DNA from: Eledone cirrhosa
Lineage: Eukaryota
Direction: 5' to 3'
Length of the DNA: 64,000 bases
Assembly: GCA_964016885.1 (NCBI GenBank)
Contig: OZ024746.1
Location: forward strand, 34,224,001 to 34,288,000
Part shown: positions 9,919-45,059 of the stretch, piece after piece
How positions within the stretch are numbered: position 1 is the first letter of the stretch
Layout: every line of letters begins with the position of its first letter
Position numbers and translations under genes: made by a program
The notes under the pieces: generated by a model
Seen by the model: the letters and a program-made list of their open reading frames with translations, nothing else
Databases searched by the model: none
What the model was told of the DNA's origin: nothing

Positions 9919-10085
9919 AATTAATATATAGTAACATATATATACATACAGATGCATATCAATGCTAGCAAATATATAGGTTTTGTCTTAGTAACTTTGT
10001 GGTTCAATGCATGGGGTTGCAGAACAATATTATGAGAGACGTAAAATAAGAAAATTATAAAATTAACTTACTTACTAAAATATCA

Positions 10086-10165
10086 CTTCCAACTAAATTA
10101 GTTTCTGGAATGGAGTAAATATATTTTCCGAAGAAGACATTGAGAGACATTCCGTCGTCAGGGAA
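10086..10165 (-). ncRNA. Type I hammerhead ribozyme with extended stem II
   Basis: ttcc-CTGACGA-cggaatg...cattcca-GAAA-ctaa t ttag-TT-ggaa, with a cUUCGg hairpin inside stem II. Confidence 0.75.
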
Positions 10166-10245
10166 TTGCTATTTCCTATCCACTGAATTATTTTTTAATA
10201 AGTTTCCAGAGTCCACGCTTTGCCTGATACTTAGATGAGAATAGT

Positions 10246-10326
10246 CTTCCCTGACGACGGAATGTTTCTCTGTGTCTTCTTCGGAAAATATGTTTACTCC
10301 ATTCCAGAAAGTAATTTAGTTGGAAG
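10246..10326 (+). ncRNA. Type I hammerhead ribozyme, mirror copy (one stem III mismatch)
   Basis: cttcc-CTGACGA-cggaatg...cattcca-GAAA-gtaatttag-TT-ggaag. Confidence 0.65.
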
Positions 10327-10372
10327 TGATATTTTAGTAAGTGAGTTAATTTTATAATTTTCTTATTTTACG

Positions 10373-10555
<183 letters not shown>

Positions 10556-15163: not shown

Positions 15164-15218
15164 ACTGCTATATATATTTCAGTGACAGCCATCTTTGGCT
15201 GTGACCTCTTCAGGCAGT
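15164..15218 (-). ncRNA. Intact minimal type I hammerhead ribozyme in a solo pLTR (approx. 15120-15345)
   Basis: actgc-CTGAAGA-ggtcacagcca aaga tggctgtcact-GAAA-tatata-TA-gcagt, then aataaa. Homologue at 60003-60058. Confidence 0.9.
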
Positions 15219-33033: not shown

Positions 33034-33170
33034 AGTGTAATTTACTACACAAAACGAAGGTTATAGAGAAAATTGAGGTTGGTAATGGCACATGGAATAT
33101 ATAAGAGACAGAATACTTTTTTGTGAAAAAACATATAATTTTATAAGGTAAGGAAATAATAAAGTGTATA

Positions 33171-33220
33171 CAAAATGACCGGTTTCGATGGGTCTGCAAA
33201 AGCCATCTTTTCAAATGTTG
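33171..33220 (-). ncRNA. Hammerhead ribozyme, U3-A8 core variant (left pLTR)
   Basis: caacat-TTGAAAA-gatgg...ccatc-GAAA-ccgg-TC-attttg. Confidence 0.7.
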
Positions 33221-33578
33221 ATTAATATTAAGAAAAATTAATAATAATAAGAGTTAAAATTTGAGATTTGAAAATTCAAGTATAAAATTCATTGTGGGAT
33301 TTCATAGTAGTTTTCATCTTGTTAGCAGCTCGTTGACTGCTTCTGGTAGTGACTGAGAAGTTATTTGGGGGTGTGGGTTATTTTATAAAGGTCAAATTTA
33401 GCAATGGCCAGATAGCCAGCTGCTGGTCAGTGAGGGGGTGGAAGCAATATACATACATATATCTTCCTGTGCTCGGTAGGAGAGGGGAGATTGATAGAAA
33501 GGGATTTAGTGCACTTACACCTATATATACACACATATCTTCATCCACACATAAATACATATACATATACATATACAT

Positions 33579-33645
<67 letters not shown>

Positions 33646-33716
33646 CACACATACATACACACACACATACATATACATACATACATACACACACACATAT
33701 ATGCACATACACACAC

Positions 33717-33751
<35 letters not shown>

Positions 33752-33909
33752 TATATATACATACAACAACAGAACCCTTGCTCATCAACAACCACAACAC
33801 ATACCACCCCCACCATCACACTCATCTTCATGAAACAACAAGCTACAGACCACACACAACAGACCAACAAAATATAATCACACACAAAACTACATTCCTT
33901 TTTTAGGGA

Positions 33910-36210
33910 AAAGCCTGAAATACCAGGATACTCGATGGCCCCCACCTCAGGAGAAACCAAAAATAATCAACCTCTCAAAGACACCTCTAACCAACACACA
34001 AATCAACATTTTAAGTAAGGGCCTGAAATGTACACCTACACCACGTAAACCAAACTTCCCCGAAATGAAGGATGACATCATGGAATACTGCCGAAAGCTG
34101 CGACTAACGGAATTCTTCCACAACGACACTAACACTGAAGATGAATCACTGGTTAGAAATAAAAGCAATTTCTGCCAACAAAAGGGAAGAAATAAAGCAC
34201 TGGACACGTACTGCGAACACATCACCAACTTTCCCTATGAAAAAATTACAAATAAACACACGAAATCAAACCTATCTACACACGAATGGGAAGAATTATT
34301 CACACTTAGAAACAACCCTGAGATAACTATCAAAGAAGCCGATAAAGGCAGTACTGTTGTCATTATGAATACGGACTACTATAGGACCCTCGCACTTAAC
34401 ATTTTAGAAAACAACACATACTATGAAAAAACAGAAAACTACAAACACACCAAAACAATGGGGAACCTTTTGACCTTACTGAATAAATACCGCAACAGCT
34501 TAACCACAAAAGAGTTTAACTATATAAGCCACTTCAAATGCAATACAAGCTCTTTTTACGGCTTACCGAAACTCCACAAATGTAAACCCATAAACGATGC
34601 ATGTGACACCTCAACCAACAATTACATTGAACTAACACCACCAGAAGACCTAAAACTCAGGCCAATTATAGCAGGCCCTACATGTGAAACCCACAGACTT
34701 AGCAACTTTCTGGACATCCTACTGAAACCCTTTCTACAACATATACAGAGCTACATACGAGATGACCTTGACATGCTGAAACACCTCCCTAAAACAGTAA
34801 GTGCAAATACAATTCTTGTCTCCTTTGACGTAATAAACCTCTACACAAACATACCCCACAACTATGGAATAACAGCAGTCCAATACTGGCTTAACACAGA
34901 CCCTTCAGAAATACCGACACGCATCAACACAGATTTTATCACTGACGGACTCCGCTTTATCCTACAAAATAATTACTTCACATTCAATGGTTCAACATAC
35001 AGACAAGTATCAGGTACGGCAATGGGCACGAAAGTAGCATCCACATATGCCAACCTAGTCATGGGATTCCATGAACAACAAATATACAGTCAGTCCCTTC
35101 TCCTATTTGGAGACTCTTTCCACACACACCTCAAAGCCAATTGGAAAAATATCTAGACGACTGCTTTATCCTATGGCAAGAAGACATGAACTCACTTACT
35201 ATGTTTAAAAACATGATAAACAACATAGATAATAACATACAATTCACAATGGAATCCAATCCCAAGGAATTAGCCTTCTTGGATATTCTCATCTCTGTAA
35301 TAGACGGGAAATTAGATACAGATATATTCTATAAACCCACAGATTCCAAGCAATACCTCTTTTTCACATCAAGTCACCCAAAACATACAAAACTTAACAT
35401 TCCTTACAATTTGGCCAAACGTATATGTACCATAGTATCAGATCCACCTAAACGGGAGCAAAGACTAAAGGAACTAAAAGACACCCTTATCTTAAGAGCC
35501 TTTCCACTTGAAATAATCAACAATGGAATAGACAGGGCAAAACACCTAAATCCCCATCAACTTAACAATCCAAAACAGAAAACCACACTCAACACCCTGC
35601 CATATGTATCCACTTTCAACCCCAGAAATACCGAAATGTTTGATCACCTACACAAAAACCTCCCCATCCTACTTAAAGATGTAAAAATGAAGTCTATTCT
35701 TGAAACACACAAGATCCTTAAAAGTAAAAGACAACCCAAATCACTAAAACGCATTCTCACTGGACCAAATATACCCAAACCAATCCTCAACCCTACAGTT
35801 ACCAGATGTGGTAGAACAAACTGTGGAACGTGCCTCTACCTCACTGAAAGACAACAATTTACATTTAAAGATGGCCAAACATTTACAGTAAAAAACAATT
35901 TCACCTGCAACTCGAAGAACTTGATTTACGCAATAACTTGCGGTGGGTGCAAACACAACTACATAGGACAGACGGGCCGCTCATTACGCAAAAGAATGAC
36001 CATCCACCGCCAACAAATCCGGGACGCTAGCACAAGAAAAATCCCCTTGAGCAGCCATATTGCGAACTGCGCAGGAATGACACTACCCAACTTTAAAATC
36101 TTCCCCTTCTACAAGTGCTCAGTTTAGTTCACACAGCAACAAAGAATAAACAAAGAAAATCTATTCCTTAACAAATTTAAACCAAAACTAAACGGGTTAT
36201 CACCCCAATA
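33910..36210 (+). pseudogene. PLE polyprotein: reverse transcriptase + Cys linker + GIY-YIG endonuclease (frameshift ~35148, stop 36125)
   Basis: IINLS..LSKGL, IKEADKG, FYGLPKLHK, LRPII, SFDVINLYTNIP, QVSGTAMGT, YLDD, FLDI, YKPTD, CGRTNCGTC, NLIYAITC..C..YIGQT. Confidence 0.95.
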
Positions 36211-36650
36211 GAATTGTCATGTAGAATCAGGTTTATTAGTTGACAGACCATGCCTTTGTGTGACCAACACATCCATGTTAAACCCTGCACGTGCACACAC
36301 ATATATCTATATATATATGCGCACACAGAATTCACCACTGTCGGTTGCGGGGCCCAATCTACATGAAGAACTCAATGTGATCAGAATGACTTGTATTTTA
36401 ATTTCACTGCCCTAACTTCTTATATTATGGAAACAATATATGTGTATGTATATATATATATTTGGAGGCCATTTCTCTGTGTGTGGGTGTATGTATGTGT
36501 ATATGTGTGTGTGTGTATGTGTGTGCATGTGGATGTATGTATTGTGTGTGCATGTGTGTGTGTGTGTGTATGTATGTGTGTATCTGGATGTATGCGTATG
36601 TGTATATATATATGTGTGTGTGTGTGTATATATATATGTGTGTGTATGTG

Positions 36651-36685
<35 letters not shown>

Positions 36686-36789
36686 ATGTGTGTTTGTATG
36701 TGTGTATGCATATATATGTGTGTGTGTATGTATGTGTGGGTGTGTGTATATATGTGCATGTATATGTGTGTATATATATGTATGTACAC

Positions 36790-36831
<42 letters not shown>

Positions 36832-37353
36832 ATGTATGTGTGTATCTGGATGTATGTGTATGTATCTATATGCGTGTGTGTGTGTATATATATATATATA
36901 TATGTATGTGTATGTGCATATATGTGTGTGTGTATGTGTGTATGTATATGTATGTGTGTGTGTATGTATGTGTGTATATGTATATATATATATATATATG
37001 TATGTATATGTATATGTATGTATGTGTGGATGAAGGTGTGTGTGTATATATAGGTGTAAGTGCACTAAATCCCTTTCTATCAATCTCCCCTCTCCTACCG
37101 AGCACAGGAAGATATATGTATGTATATTGCTTCCACCCCCTCACTGACCAGCAGCTGGCCATGTGGCCATTGCTAAATTTGACCTTTATAAAATAACCCA
37201 CACCCTCAAATAACTTCTCATTCACTACCAGAAGCAGTCAACGAGCTGCTACCAAGATGAAAACTACTATGAAATCCCATAATGAATTTTATACTTGAAT
37301 TTTCAAATCTCAAATTTTAACTCTTCTTATTATTAATTTTTCTTAATATTAAT

Positions 37354-37403
37354 CAACATTTGAAAAGATGGCTTTTGCAGACCCATCGAAACCGGTCTTT
37401 TTT
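37354..37403 (+). ncRNA. Hammerhead ribozyme, U3-A8 core variant (right pLTR; stem I damaged)
   Basis: caacat-TTGAAAA-gatgg...ccatc-GAAA-ccgg-TC. Confidence 0.6.
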
Positions 37404-37748
37404 TATACCCTTTATTATTTCCTTACCTTATAAAATTATATGTTTTTTCACAAAAAAGTATTCTGTCTCTTATATATTCCATGTGCCATTACCAACCTCA
37501 ATTTTCTCTATATAAATATATATATATATATATATATAGTGTATAAAGGTCGGCGAATGGGGTGGTAACAAAAACAGTTCCCGATGCACTGGTAAAGTGT
37601 ATATAGTAAAAGAGAAAACGCAGAAGTTTCGTTTACATGTAGAAGGTTTTCAATATGTTATATATATATATATTTTATATATTGATATCTGTTATATATA
37701 TGTTATATATTGATATATGTTATATATATGTTATATATTGATATATGT

Positions 37749-40663: not shown

Positions 40664-43600
40664 GTTTTGCGAGGTTTTTGATATGAAATCGTGTGTCGAA
40701 ACTAATATTGTTATACTTGCTGAGGGTCATATTTGTGTAATAATATTGCCGGAATTAATAATAGAACACACTCACTGTTTGGTTGGTTTTCGCTTCAGCG
40801 TCTTTTATATCGGTTAATTTAATTTATTCCGTCCTCAATGCTACCAACGGCCAAAAATACAGATATAATATAGACACAAACACATATATATAAATATAGT
40901 CTAACAAAGTCTTTCGTTGCACATCTTCAACATTGTCAGTGGTGCTATTATGTTTCCTCCCGTTGTATTGTATGCCTACGCCATCTTTATTTAGTTTGTT
41001 TATTTATTTATTTATTTATTTATTTTTGTCTTCTCTGCGCATGCGTTTGTGTGTGTGTATAGTTTTTGAGGCGTGTTCGTGTTTGGGTGACTGTGTATTG
41101 GTTATTGTATTCTAACTTAGTTGACTAGTGTGTGTTTATATGTGTTTGTTGTTATGGTGCTTGTGTATGTATTTATTTATTCTGTTTAGCCTTGGCCTTC
41201 TAAGTTCTATTTCGCTGGCCTCTCTGATTTGCCTAACTGCTGGGTCATTTCTATGTGTAGATATTATTCTAATTTCTATGTTGTCTATGTTACCGTCGTG
41301 TGGTTGTCTGGCATGTTCGTATAGTTCTGAACCGTTTTTTCGTCCTTTTAGTCTATCCTTTCACCTATGCTACGAGCTGTCTCGCCTATGTATGTTGTTG
41401 TCATGTTTCTGCAAGTACCCTCTGTACATCTTATGCTATAGACTACGTTTCTAGTTTTACAGTTTATGCGGGGGTTTAGTTTACATATAATACATTTCCT
41501 ATTAGTAATGTGGGTTTTCTTAAAAGGGTAGGTTTTGCTGATCAAGGATTTTATGGTGATTCCTGGCTTTTCTACCACCTTTATCTTTAAGTGGGTCTTT
41601 CTCAGGGCCTTTCTACACTGGTTAACTAATTTCTCTCAAGGGGTAGCGTCCTCAAGCATGACACTCTGGTATCTCTGGTTTTCGTAGTCCTATCTAAGCT
41701 ATTCCATGATTTGCTCCTGTACAATGGGTAAATTCCTTTCATGTCCAGTTCTATGAGGGTCTTATACTTCTCCGTGCCTCCTTCGTATACTCTGATTCTG
41801 TCTCTTTGGTTGTAGCCAGAGAACTACATGCGGTTGATGAAGTGTTGGATGTGTTTTTTACATTTCTGTTGGGTCGCACTTGCGGGACACGGTCTTCATC
41901 ACTCGTACCATGTCTGCGATCAGAATATAAACTTAGCACTACTTGACATTGCTGACTTATTGAGTATTAGGTATTTGGAGGTCATGGGTTTAGCATAGTG
42001 TGAGTGGAGAATTTGGGCTCTCTCGTCTATAGTGTTAATCCAGAGTTCTGTGTCTAATACAGGTAGTCTATTGTTAGGTTGTTTGGAAGGGTAGTCGATA
42101 GTTACAGTCATACTCTGGTGTATGGAATTAGCTATTTGCTGGATGATTTCCATTGTGCTACGTTCTAAATCAAACTTGTTAGTACTCTCTTGTGGGGATG
42201 TCCTTATTACTATATTGATGTCCTCTACGTAACGAGAGTACATGATGAGGGCTGTGGACCTCTCATCAAGGAGATCTTTGGGTCTCCTTTCCCACCATAC
42301 CATAAACAGTTTGGCAACCTCACCAGCTATGCTGACGCCAATGGCTGCTCCCTCATTTTGGGTGTAGATATTCTCGTTGAATTTGAAAATGTGGCCCTTT
42401 AGGGTAGTTTTGATACTAACCCCTATTGCATGTGCGACCATTTTTCTTACCTGATCATTGTTTTAGGGAGTCCGTATAGCTTTGGTCCACCCAATCCACC
42501 TTCCCATGGGACTCTTGTTTGCCATTGAGGTTATGGTGGGGGTTCTACCTCTTATGGGTCTACTGGGGCAGAAATGTCTAAGGTCATGGGTGTCTAGGTA
42601 GTCTGTGCCATAGGTAAGTCTAAGTAGGAGGCCCAGTTCGTCTGTGTCGACGTCGCAGAAACGCACCTCACTCCCAATAGTCCTTTCCACTAATTTTTCC
42701 ACAGCAAAATCAATGTTAATGGATGGGTATAGTGATACCACATCCATACTGCCTATTATGCAGTTGGATAGGTTTTTGTTTTTGTTGCACTCACTGATTT
42801 TGCTGTGGAGGTCCTCTGTACTGTCACATACATCTGAGGACAGCTTGATTATGGGGCGATAACCATTGAGTTCATCAACCGCATGCAGTTCTCTGGCTAC
42901 AACCAAAGAGAGAGAATCAGAGTATACGAAGGAGCCACAGGGAAGTATAAGACCCTCATAGAACTGGACATGAAGGACATTTGCCCATTGTACAGGAGAA
43001 AATCATGGAATAGCTTAGATAGGACTAGACATAAGATAGGGAAAGCCACCTAATGATATGACAACCAGAGATACCAGAGTGTCATATTTGTGGACGGTAC
43101 CCCTGTAGAGAAATTAGCTAACCAGTGTAGAAAGGCCCTGAGAAAGACCTACTTAAAGATTAAGGTGGTAGAAAAGCCAGGAACCACCATAACATCCCTG
43201 ATTAGGAAAACACCCTTTTAAGAAAACCCACTGTACTAATAGGAAATATATTATAAGGAAAGTAAACACCTAGAAAAAACTGTAAAACTAGAAACGTATT
43301 CTACAGCATAAGATGTACATAGGGTACTTGCAGAAACATGACAACAACATAAATAGCCGAAACAGCTCGTAGCATAGGTGAAAGGATAGAACAACACTGG
43401 GGGGAACTAAAGGGAGGAAAAAACGGTTCAGTACTATACGAACATGCCAGACAACAACACGACGGTAACATATACAATATAGAAATTAGAATAATATCTA
43501 CACATAGAAATGTACAAGCAGATAGGCAAATCAGAGAGGCCAGCGAAATAGAACTTAGATGGCCAAGGCTAAACAGAAAAAATGAATAGAATAACAACAA

Positions 43601-44099
43601 CACCCAAACAAACAATACTGACCTAAGAGAAGTGTAAATAAATAAATAAATACATACACAAGCACAATAACAACAAACACATATAAACACACACTAGTAA
43701 ACTAAGATAGAATACAATATCAATACACAGTCACCCAAACTCGAATACACATAAAAAAACTATACACACACGCAAACGCATGCGTAGAGAAGACACAACA
43801 AAATAAACAGACTAAATAAAGATGGCGAAGGCATACAATACAACGGGAGGAAACATAATAGCACCACTGACAATGTTGCAGATGTGCAACGAAAGAACTT
43901 TTTTAGACTATATATATGTGTTTGTCCCTATAATATATCTGTATTTTTGACCATTGGTCAGTCAATGGTAGCATTGACGACGGAATAAATTAAATTAACC
44001 GATATAAAAGATACACAAGCGAAAACCAACCAAACAGTGAGTGTGTTCTTTTATTAATTCTGGCAATATTATTACTCAAATATGAACCTCCCCAATTAT

Positions 44100-44105
<6 letters not shown>
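40664..44105 (-). mobile_element. Penelope-like element with ~1.15-kb inverted duplication of EN + 3' UTR flanking a truncated RT
   Basis: RT: YRPII, GSMDVVSLYPSI, YTQNEGAAIG, YSRYVEDI, LPVLD, HYAKP (41920-42870). EN: CIIC..NVVYSIRC...YIGETARS. 40707-41840 is the reverse complement of 42869-44105. Tail 40664-40706 is on the left only. Decayed HHRs at ~40905-40945 and 43867-43900. Confidence 0.92.
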
Positions 44106-44196
<91 letters not shown>

Positions 44197-44323
44197 TATA
44201 ATATATATATATATATATATATAATATTATATAATATATATATATTATAATATAATATTATATAATATATATATATATTATAATGAAATAGTATGATAGA
44301 ATATTAAATTCTAAGTGTTAATT

Positions 44324-44360
44324 GAACAAGTACTTTCATGCTTTCGCAATCTTCAGGTTC
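44324..44360 (-). ncRNA. Minimal type I hammerhead ribozyme
   Basis: gaac-CTGAAGA-ttgc gaaa gcat-GAAA-gtac-TT-gttc. Confidence 0.88.
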
Positions 44361-44450
44361 ATGATATGTGGTGACAGTCGAGTTTGCAATTTTCAACTTT
44401 TAAAAATTCAAAAGTTGAAAATTGCAAACTCGACTGTCACCACATATCAT

Positions 44451-44487
44451 GAACCTGAAGATTGCGAAAGCATGAAAGTACTTGTTC
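44451..44487 (+). ncRNA. Minimal type I hammerhead ribozyme
   Basis: gaac-CTGAAGA-ttgc gaaa gcat-GAAA-gtac-TT-gttc. Palindromic stem III AGTACT; GAAA tetraloop on stem II. Confidence 0.88.
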
Positions 44488-44658
44488 AATTAACACTTAG
44501 AATTTAATATTATATCATACTATTTCATTATAATACCATTATATATATTTTAAAGGATTGTAAATAAAACGAGTAAATCAGACAAAGTTGGAATTCCTCT
44601 TATTAATATAATCTTCTATACGCAATCATACACACACGTGTATATTTACCTATCTATA

Positions 44659-44724
<66 letters not shown>

Positions 44725-45059
44725 ATATATATATCATGTATATGTATATATATATATATATCAAATTACAAAATATGAGGAAATAATAGACAACAATATA
44801 CATAATTATTCTTCAAAGTCACGACTGCAGTTTCGTCGATATATGTGCACGAATGCTTCACTTTAAAAATGCATCATCGCTGTGAGGTTGATACGGCTTA
44901 TCAAGAGAACCCTCAGGAAAATGGACTGTTCCTTGACGCGTTTATAGCAAGTGAGAATGTCTTATAGACGGAGGGAGAGATTAATACGTGATACAGTGGT
45001 AAACAAAAAGATTATCAAGAGGAGGCAACGACAGCAACAGTGACATTAACAACAACACA

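Follow-up and report, generated by a model that had tools for sequence, protein, structure and literature searches.

A Palindrome Bearing a Hammerhead Motif on Each Strand in Eledone cirrhosa: Probable Head-to-Head Insertion of a Penelope-like pLTR

The Palindromic Locus

The window analysed is a stretch of 64,000 nt from the 3.0-Gb Eledone cirrhosa assembly GCA_964016885.1 (G000), contig OZ024746.1, positions 34,224,001–34,288,000. Within it, the segment 44279–44532 is self-complementary over 254 bp, with three mismatched pairs, two central and one at 44299/44512, and it is predicted to fold into a single hairpin (−195.8 kcal/mol) whose loop is 8 nt. The initial annotation had described a near-perfect palindrome next to (TA)n, and both points are borne out, with (TA)n lying on both sides. 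It had also read the hammerhead motif gaac-CUGAAGA-uugcgaaagcau-GAAA-guac-UU-guuc on both strands, where it is indeed present. The parts of the locus are given in Table 1. Element positions are numbered from the A of ACAGT (+1), and the predicted cut sites are placed by standard hammerhead numbering.

Table 1. Parts of the palindromic locus, in window coordinates.
Feature	Position	Strand	Remark
(TA)n target microsatellite, left flank	44104–44275		
Left arm: inverted pLTR copy, element +3 to +125	44276–44398	−	Stops early in (TA)n flank
Hammerhead motif, minus-strand copy, minimal type I	44323–44361 (core pattern 44324–44360)	−	Predicted cut 44328/44327
Junction filler, 14 nt, at apex	44399–44412		Unique in genome
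Right arm: pLTR, +3 to short end-site (site 1)	44413–44607	+	Matches 5′ pLTR of full-length copy L062
Hammerhead motif, minimal type I	44450–44488 (core pattern 44451–44487)	+	Predicted cut 44483/44484
PLE tail, ~50 nt	44608–44661	+	Right arm only; from comparison with L062
(TA)n target microsatellite, right flank	44662–44761		

The palindrome does extend over 254 bp, but this is not the size of the unit: it is limited to 254 bp because the left arm ends at +125, and the right arm continues unpaired for another ~130 bp, past the short end-site and through the tail to ~44661. Compared with the 5′ pLTR of L062, the right arm has two substitutions and a 2-nt gap over 44413–44607. When the tail is included, counting from +3, its differences from the L062 5′ end amount to four substitutions and one 2-nt gap, and the match extends into the TA repeat, to 44671. 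Judged by sequence, the 254 bp are not the element; the arms are the first 125–250 bases of an abundant Penelope-like retrotransposon. The description of the copy as young is supported by 42 near-full-length arm matches, the two arms of the studied copy included, that are 96–100% identical.

Perfect palindromes are a known class of artefact, and a fold-back in the assembly or in a read is a rival account of the locus. A case that would suit it is found elsewhere, at L016 (G000:C2:406594918-406595101), which unlike the others has identical arms and mirrored flanks and may be an assembly fold-back or a larger inverted duplication. At the studied locus, by contrast, the left and right flanks do not mirror each other, one arm is longer than the other, a single base distinguishes the paired parts, and the apex filler occurs once in the genome, even with up to one mismatch allowed. 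Moreover, an asymmetric pattern of one short and one tailed end recurs at hundreds of loci, which a mirror artefact is unable to produce. We give the artefact almost no credence.

Several other repeats in the window are of related kinds. At 10000–10400 lies an older head-to-head pair of another family, with (TA)n flanks and hammerhead-like cores at 10161 (−) and 10251 (+). Another PLE in inverted arrangement spans 33062–37512; its inverted ends are 90% identical, and its RT and GIY-YIG frames are at 33834–36124, the second frame being 41% identical to P0001 over 331 aa. Just left of the palindrome, at 40705–44107, is an old inverted pair of ~1.2 kb with 80% identity and RT-like frames at 41923–43002 (−). 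Hammerhead-like motifs of other repeat families, with a longer stem II, are found at 15213 (−), 10970 (−), and 29313 (+), and the family of the 15213 motif is also seen as an inverted pair upstream in L010.

The Parent Element and Its Copies

A search of the genome with a single arm gave 66 matches (40 scored of 203 candidates), and some arm copies run on upstream into RT and GIY-YIG sequence. Examination of 20 longer stretches led to three open frames of 775 codons, in which the match to RVT_1 (E 3e-6) is below the Pfam cut-off and that to GIY-YIG (E 1.5e-6 to 3.5e-6) is above it. The RT has the motifs DKG, GTAMG, and YLDD, and a C-x4-C-x2-C linker precedes the C-terminal GIY-YIG. Because the arm sequence also occurs upstream of a 449-aa ORF1 in full-length copies, it qualifies as pLTR; in L062, L175, and L207, pLTR sequence precedes ORF1 and also follows the RT ORF. 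The tail continues into the ORF1 leader in full-length copies, with the ORF1 ATG at +285.

The traits of EN+ Penelope-like elements are thus all seen: an RT and C-terminal GIY-YIG contiguous with the arms, a partial-tandem pLTR bearing a hammerhead, and an inverted 5′-truncated copy with a tail on one end only. The CX2-5CxxC linker and the (TA)n bias are those of the Neptune/Nematis group. The parent is a full-length RT plus GIY-YIG Penelope-like element with a Neptune/Nematis-type linker, its putative clade being suggested by motifs. The named homologues, all unclassified proteins, belong to bivalves or to assemblies of bivalve symbionts, and a metagenome scan for relatives of the parent RT found none.

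ORF1 is basic, has zero Pfam matches, and overlaps the RT ORF in the −1 frame, an arrangement that likely reflects a programmed −1 frameshift. A frameshifted ORF1 is mentioned for some PLE types in a figure legend of PMC8557442. A T-TTT-TTA heptamer lies in frame at the overlap in every copy listed (L208:4881-8464; L062, L175, L207), with no strong hairpin predicted downstream of it.

The family is large. A 25-mer from the pLTR has 7,786 matches in the genome, and head-to-head joints at one fixed point number 915 genome-wide, a few of the rows overlapping; reversed-pattern controls gave 0 in both cases, and the counts are thus well above what chance would give. An exact apex, CAAC-(A/T)-GTTG, is common to 582 loci. 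One arm is interrupted at 10 of the first 15 apex loci and at 9 of 60 loci chosen for an intact tail arm, so that many of the 915 joints are not full palindromes. Long inverted pairs also arise in this family; they include ORF fragments, and their inversion points vary.

Two loci have arrangements of their own. L208 (G000:C1:21871700-21881100) is an 8.7-kb palindrome of two full-length elements head-to-head, both ORFs open, with 4366 of 4388 aligned bases identical between the arms, the apex at the predicted hammerhead cut, and outer ends of which one is tailed and one short. L013 (G000:C2:15475409-15475669), the only one of 30 arm-search loci with a short direct repeat, has three direct repeats of +7 to +84 and hence three tandem hammerheads; of the arrangements observed, it alone would permit cleavage as a dimer.

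The Hammerhead Motif

The motif is composed of a 5-bp stem I, CUGAAGA, a U·U plus 3-bp stem II, and a palindromic AGUACU stem III. The ribozyme had been called intact, and this holds for the catalytic core, in which C3-U4-G5-A6, G8-A9, G12-A13-A14, A15.1-U16.1, and H17 are all present, along with stem I and stem III. For the remainder, the term needs qualifying. The pair flanking stem II is U·U in place of the G10.1-C11.1 that Cervera and de la Peña, in a passage of PMC4209133, give as highly conserved; stem II is short; and the predicted energy of the monomer hammerhead fold is +1.1 kcal/mol, against −4.8 for the palindromic stem III duplex. Rfam at its gathering score gave zero matches in the window, and at E ≤ 10 no hammerhead family around the locus. 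Strong Rfam matches to miRNA hairpin families at E ≤ 10, which fall below those families' own cut-offs, were rejected as an effect of the palindrome.

In the palindromes of 60 exact-apex loci, the hammerhead core has 27 substitutions in 1312 positions (2.1%) versus 155 in 12372 (1.25%) elsewhere, and the segment +40 to +78 is unchanged in 53 of 108 palindrome arms. Decay at the hammerhead positions is no slower than in the neighbouring sequence, and these positions show no purifying selection in the palindromes. Within the explanation favoured below, the hammerhead is simply the usual pLTR ribozyme of the parent, brought in once with each arm.

The 5′ Ends of the Copies

Most copies begin at one point. 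Among 99 scored consecutive C1 arms (1 of 100 was unscored), the start lies at 0 to +11 in 59 and at +12 to +145 in 19, and the other 21 read through by over 200 nt. In an overlapping sample, for which the anchor was +84, there are 37 fixed starts and 36 read-throughs; a further 6 arms start between −92 and −4, and 21 between +15 and +82. Solo copies abutting (TA)n start at the fixed point in 361 rows, as compared with 5–19 rows at five other positions. A TATA box, TATAAAAG, is found at −31, and two CCAAT-type boxes are further upstream. The fixed point, ACAGT at +1, is likely the RNA 5′ end, that is, a putative transcription start site.

Where two complete ACAGT ends are separated by a one-base spacer, the spacer is G or C in 20 of 20 cases, and the parent has T there. 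A G templated by the cap would fit all 20, but we do not take this to prove a cap: the identical base is expected from a snap-back onto +23 to +30, which takes in ACTGT at +23 to +27, and the spacers therefore indicate a cDNA end at +1, not a cap.

The putative RNA 5′ end (+1 to +27) is predicted to form an 8-bp hairpin. Where the second arm is broken, it often ends between +22 and +30 (L081–L092 and the 60-locus set), leaving short inverted stubs that resemble the 18–38 bp pLTR palindromes described in a passage of PMC3846280.

A weak excess of 5′ ends is also seen near the predicted hammerhead cut. Of the 19 internal starts, seven lie between +72 and +84 (p = 0.0014, with one start reassigned by hand from +68 to +73), and solo junctions occur at 15 loci at +74 and 13 at +84, versus 5 at +54, 3 at +64, and 5 at +106. 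There are 15 joints in which each arm is near the cut, versus 1 in the reversed control and 5 at +54; two of the 15 are blunt at exactly +74/+74, and four use the AAGTACTT palindrome. Mixed palindromes number 26 at the cut site against 13 upstream and 18 downstream, many of these joints being explicable by microhomology. The excess hints at cleavage in vivo but is suggestive only.

Formation of the Head-to-Head Joint

The arm-pair set consists of 125 distinct pairs collected by several queries and is not a random sample. Positions 127–141 were excluded from both arm-pair comparisons, and an arm discordance at +130 to +138 was dismissed as an alignment artefact of an AT run.

The two outer ends obey a strict rule. 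Short palindromes with both ends intact combine a short end with a tail in 77 of 80 cases and two short ends in 1 of 80; long pairs without an ORF end combine a short end with a tail in 20 of 21. At the 60 exact-apex loci, the second arm is complete in 51, of which 49 are short and 2 are rows of one two-tailed locus, so that 49 of 50 distinct loci are short plus tail.

We consider it probable that the studied locus is a head-to-head insertion of the 5′ pLTR into (TA)n, a likely product of twin priming that was probably inert from the moment of insertion, as follows. The transcript of the element would start at +1, 31 nt below the TATA box. The endonuclease would cut both strands of the (TA)n target, and each of the two ends would prime the RT, whose two internal start sites would lie ~200 and ~250 nt into the RNA. 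With priming within the first pLTR, both cDNAs would reach the RNA 5′ end. The ACTGT tips of the two cDNAs would anneal with a central T·T mismatch, whose repair to either base would give the common CAAC-(A/T)-GTTG apex, while other joints, including the one studied, would be patched with filler. The hammerhead at the studied locus would lack its own promoter, would be masked by the antisense arm, which is transcribed ahead of it, and would undergo neutral decay. There is precedent for the main steps: passages of PMC11167929 report for PAc (Poseidon, Anolis carolinensis) that both target strands are cut and extended and that two internal RT starts define the tail, and passages of PMC8557442 report PLEs with inverted 5′-truncated copies, a tail at one end, and a (TA)n bias.

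A rival account keeps the parent and the inert status but makes the second arm by fold-back: a single cDNA, on arriving at the RNA 5′ end, would prime itself and be copied back as far as site 1, where the endonuclease or (TA) microhomology would stop it. In a variant, it is an antisense template that primes itself, a route put forward for the Penelope elements of rotifers. Fold-back yields the identical CAAC-T-GTTG letters, site 1 is AT-rich like the target, short inverted stubs end near +24 to +29, and such junction palindromes are interpreted as self-priming in a passage of PMC3846280. The two accounts differ at the apex base. Annealing of two tips predicts a random base, whereas fold-back is possible only from the tailed cDNA and hence should place A on the tail side almost always. 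The counts are 239 A versus 218 T (52%, p = 0.35). In the subfamily of the studied copy, scored with a shorter anchor, they are 80 A versus 57 T, a mild A excess in a young subfamily that favours fold-back and may leave room for some of it. Flipping of the spacer by recombination between the arms could also hide a one-sided origin.

The arms of a locus are mostly concordant, with discordance at subfamily sites of 4.6% versus 38% between loci. This fits a single template, as fold-back would have it, and does not separate twin priming from fold-back. At L085, L184, and L263, the arms differ by multi-site subfamily haplotypes, which counts against fold-back, as do the long pairs, whose inversion points are unequal and independent. 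We do not claim two different RNA templates per event, since hypermutable sites could explain the differences on which such a claim would rest (4.6% versus 1.7% elsewhere; 4.5% versus 1.8%). On balance, we judge fold-back to be unlikely and retain twin priming as the preferred reading.

Propagating Unit or By-Product

The initial annotation had proposed either a one-off PLE double-priming product or a palindromic retrozyme. Double priming is supported, but "one-off" is not, as the joint recurs ~900 times. It had also suggested asking whether copies share the same apex and ends, the mark of a transposing unit. One exact apex is found at 582 loci, although the filler of the studied copy is unique. 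The putative fixed 5′ end of the template RNA would explain the shared apex, and the test would be misleading for that very reason.

A non-autonomous palindromic "retrozyme" or MITE-like unit, transcribed and re-inserted whole, would nevertheless account for the one apex and the stereotyped ends, and a proposal that non-LTR retrozymes are PLE derivatives is found in a passage of bioRxiv 10.64898/2026.07.22.740005. Separate tail-arm and short-arm lineages, however, are absent. Tail arms resemble one another no more closely than they resemble short arms, the counts being 39 versus 53 pairs with 503 ties in the 125-pair set and 124 versus 117 with 1,034 ties in the exact-apex set. At least five subfamily haplotypes are represented among the palindromes, the two arms matching, which is what repeated new formation would give. 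The orientation of the apex is random, the base being unlinked to the tail side, and solo copies have the same 5′ end as the palindromes. Re-priming on palindromic RNA should often give the short-plus-short form that is seen just once, and the promoter boxes lie outside the unit. Finally, non-LTR retrozymes are head-to-tail tandem units, but the arms here are head-to-head, and hammerheads so placed are unable to release a unit-length circle, unlike those of tandem retrozymes; nor was propagation of the unit itself found. The retrozyme reading is largely refuted, and we regard it as very improbable.

A conformational or editing-controlled switch, also envisaged at first, fares no better: the antisense arm would always be transcribed first, the start lies below the promoter-like boxes, and purifying selection is absent. 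The palindrome is likely an inert by-product, neither a new mobile ribozyme nor a switch.

Comparison with Known Systems

The closest likenesses, taken from parts of the cited papers, are as follows. The Neptune/Nematis EN+ PLEs of PMC8557442 share with the parent an RT with DKG and YLDD, the C-x4-C-x2-C linker, the C-terminal GIY-YIG, and a hammerhead pLTR, and share with its copies the inverted 5′-truncated form, the tail at one end, and (TA)n targets. Unlike what the passages describe for them, the commonest product here consists of two pLTRs alone, set head-to-head around an apex precise to the base and found hundreds of times, and the parent has a separate 449-aa ORF1 whose overlap with the RT ORF is in the −1 frame. 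The tail is ~50 nt here versus 30–40 nt there.

PAc resembles the present family in having two end-sites separated by the tail, AT-rich targets, and extension of both strands, with uncut RNA as the main template, according to sections of PMC11167929. The PAc starts are inside the ORF, whereas here they are upstream of the ORF1 ATG; PAc was demonstrated in vitro, whereas the present family is read from genomic copies. A head-to-head join is undescribed in the parts of that paper covered.

Opposite-strand pairs of minimal hammerheads and junction palindromes have already been described. In Schistosoma mansoni, dual min-HHRs lie ~100–700 bp apart on opposite strands and are read as truncated PLEs in a section of PMC4209133; compared with these, the hammerhead here is without the conserved G10.1-C11.1, and its stem II is short. 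In Adineta vaga, palindromes occur at head-to-head pLTR junctions (PMC3846280, in part). The passages of PMC4209133 and PMC3846280 give no apex statistics, and the latter favours antisense self-priming.

Non-LTR retrozymes, as a portion of PMC7229834 presents them, are likewise short, non-coding, low-GC repeats with a type I hammerhead in animal genomes, but they form head-to-tail tandems processed to circular RNAs. The present copies differ in being head-to-head, in having an identified autonomous parent, and in showing no sign of copying as a unit. Our literature search, which covered mainly the main text of open-access papers, found no paper on fixed-apex pLTR palindromes or PLE twin priming; figures and supplements may hold similar apex data.

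Significance

The studied locus is ordinary retrotransposon debris, and the family is a new one of a known kind. The interest is in what the family statistics say about the formation of PLE inverted repeats, not in the single locus. A passage of PMC8557442 names the formation of Penelope inverted repeats as open, and their published reading, in the part of PMC3846280 concerned, is antisense self-priming. There is also a warning in the family: a shared apex in hammerhead palindromes does not imply a new mobile unit.

More tentatively, and rather against the balance of probability, the family may be an in vivo fossil record of the Penelope reaction. Each event would involve two cDNAs, two fixed priming sites, and self-complementary tips joined at the capped RNA end, so that head-to-head repeats would need no antisense template. 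The smaller cut-site class, including the two +74/+74 joints and the 8.7-kb palindrome, would then record a U·U-variant ribozyme that cleaves in vivo and whose cut RNA is still retrotransposed. The PAc study, in the part of PMC11167929 at issue, sought hammerhead cleavage in RNA-seq and found none; if the cut-site excess of 5′ ends holds across all arms of the family, it would be in vivo evidence for cleavage by a PLE hammerhead.

Intact young ORFs are present and usable for reconstitution. Together, the hundreds of dated joints, with their base-precise apex, strict short-plus-tail ends, and ~50:50 apex base, provide a direct test of twin priming versus fold-back in the making of Penelope inverted repeats.
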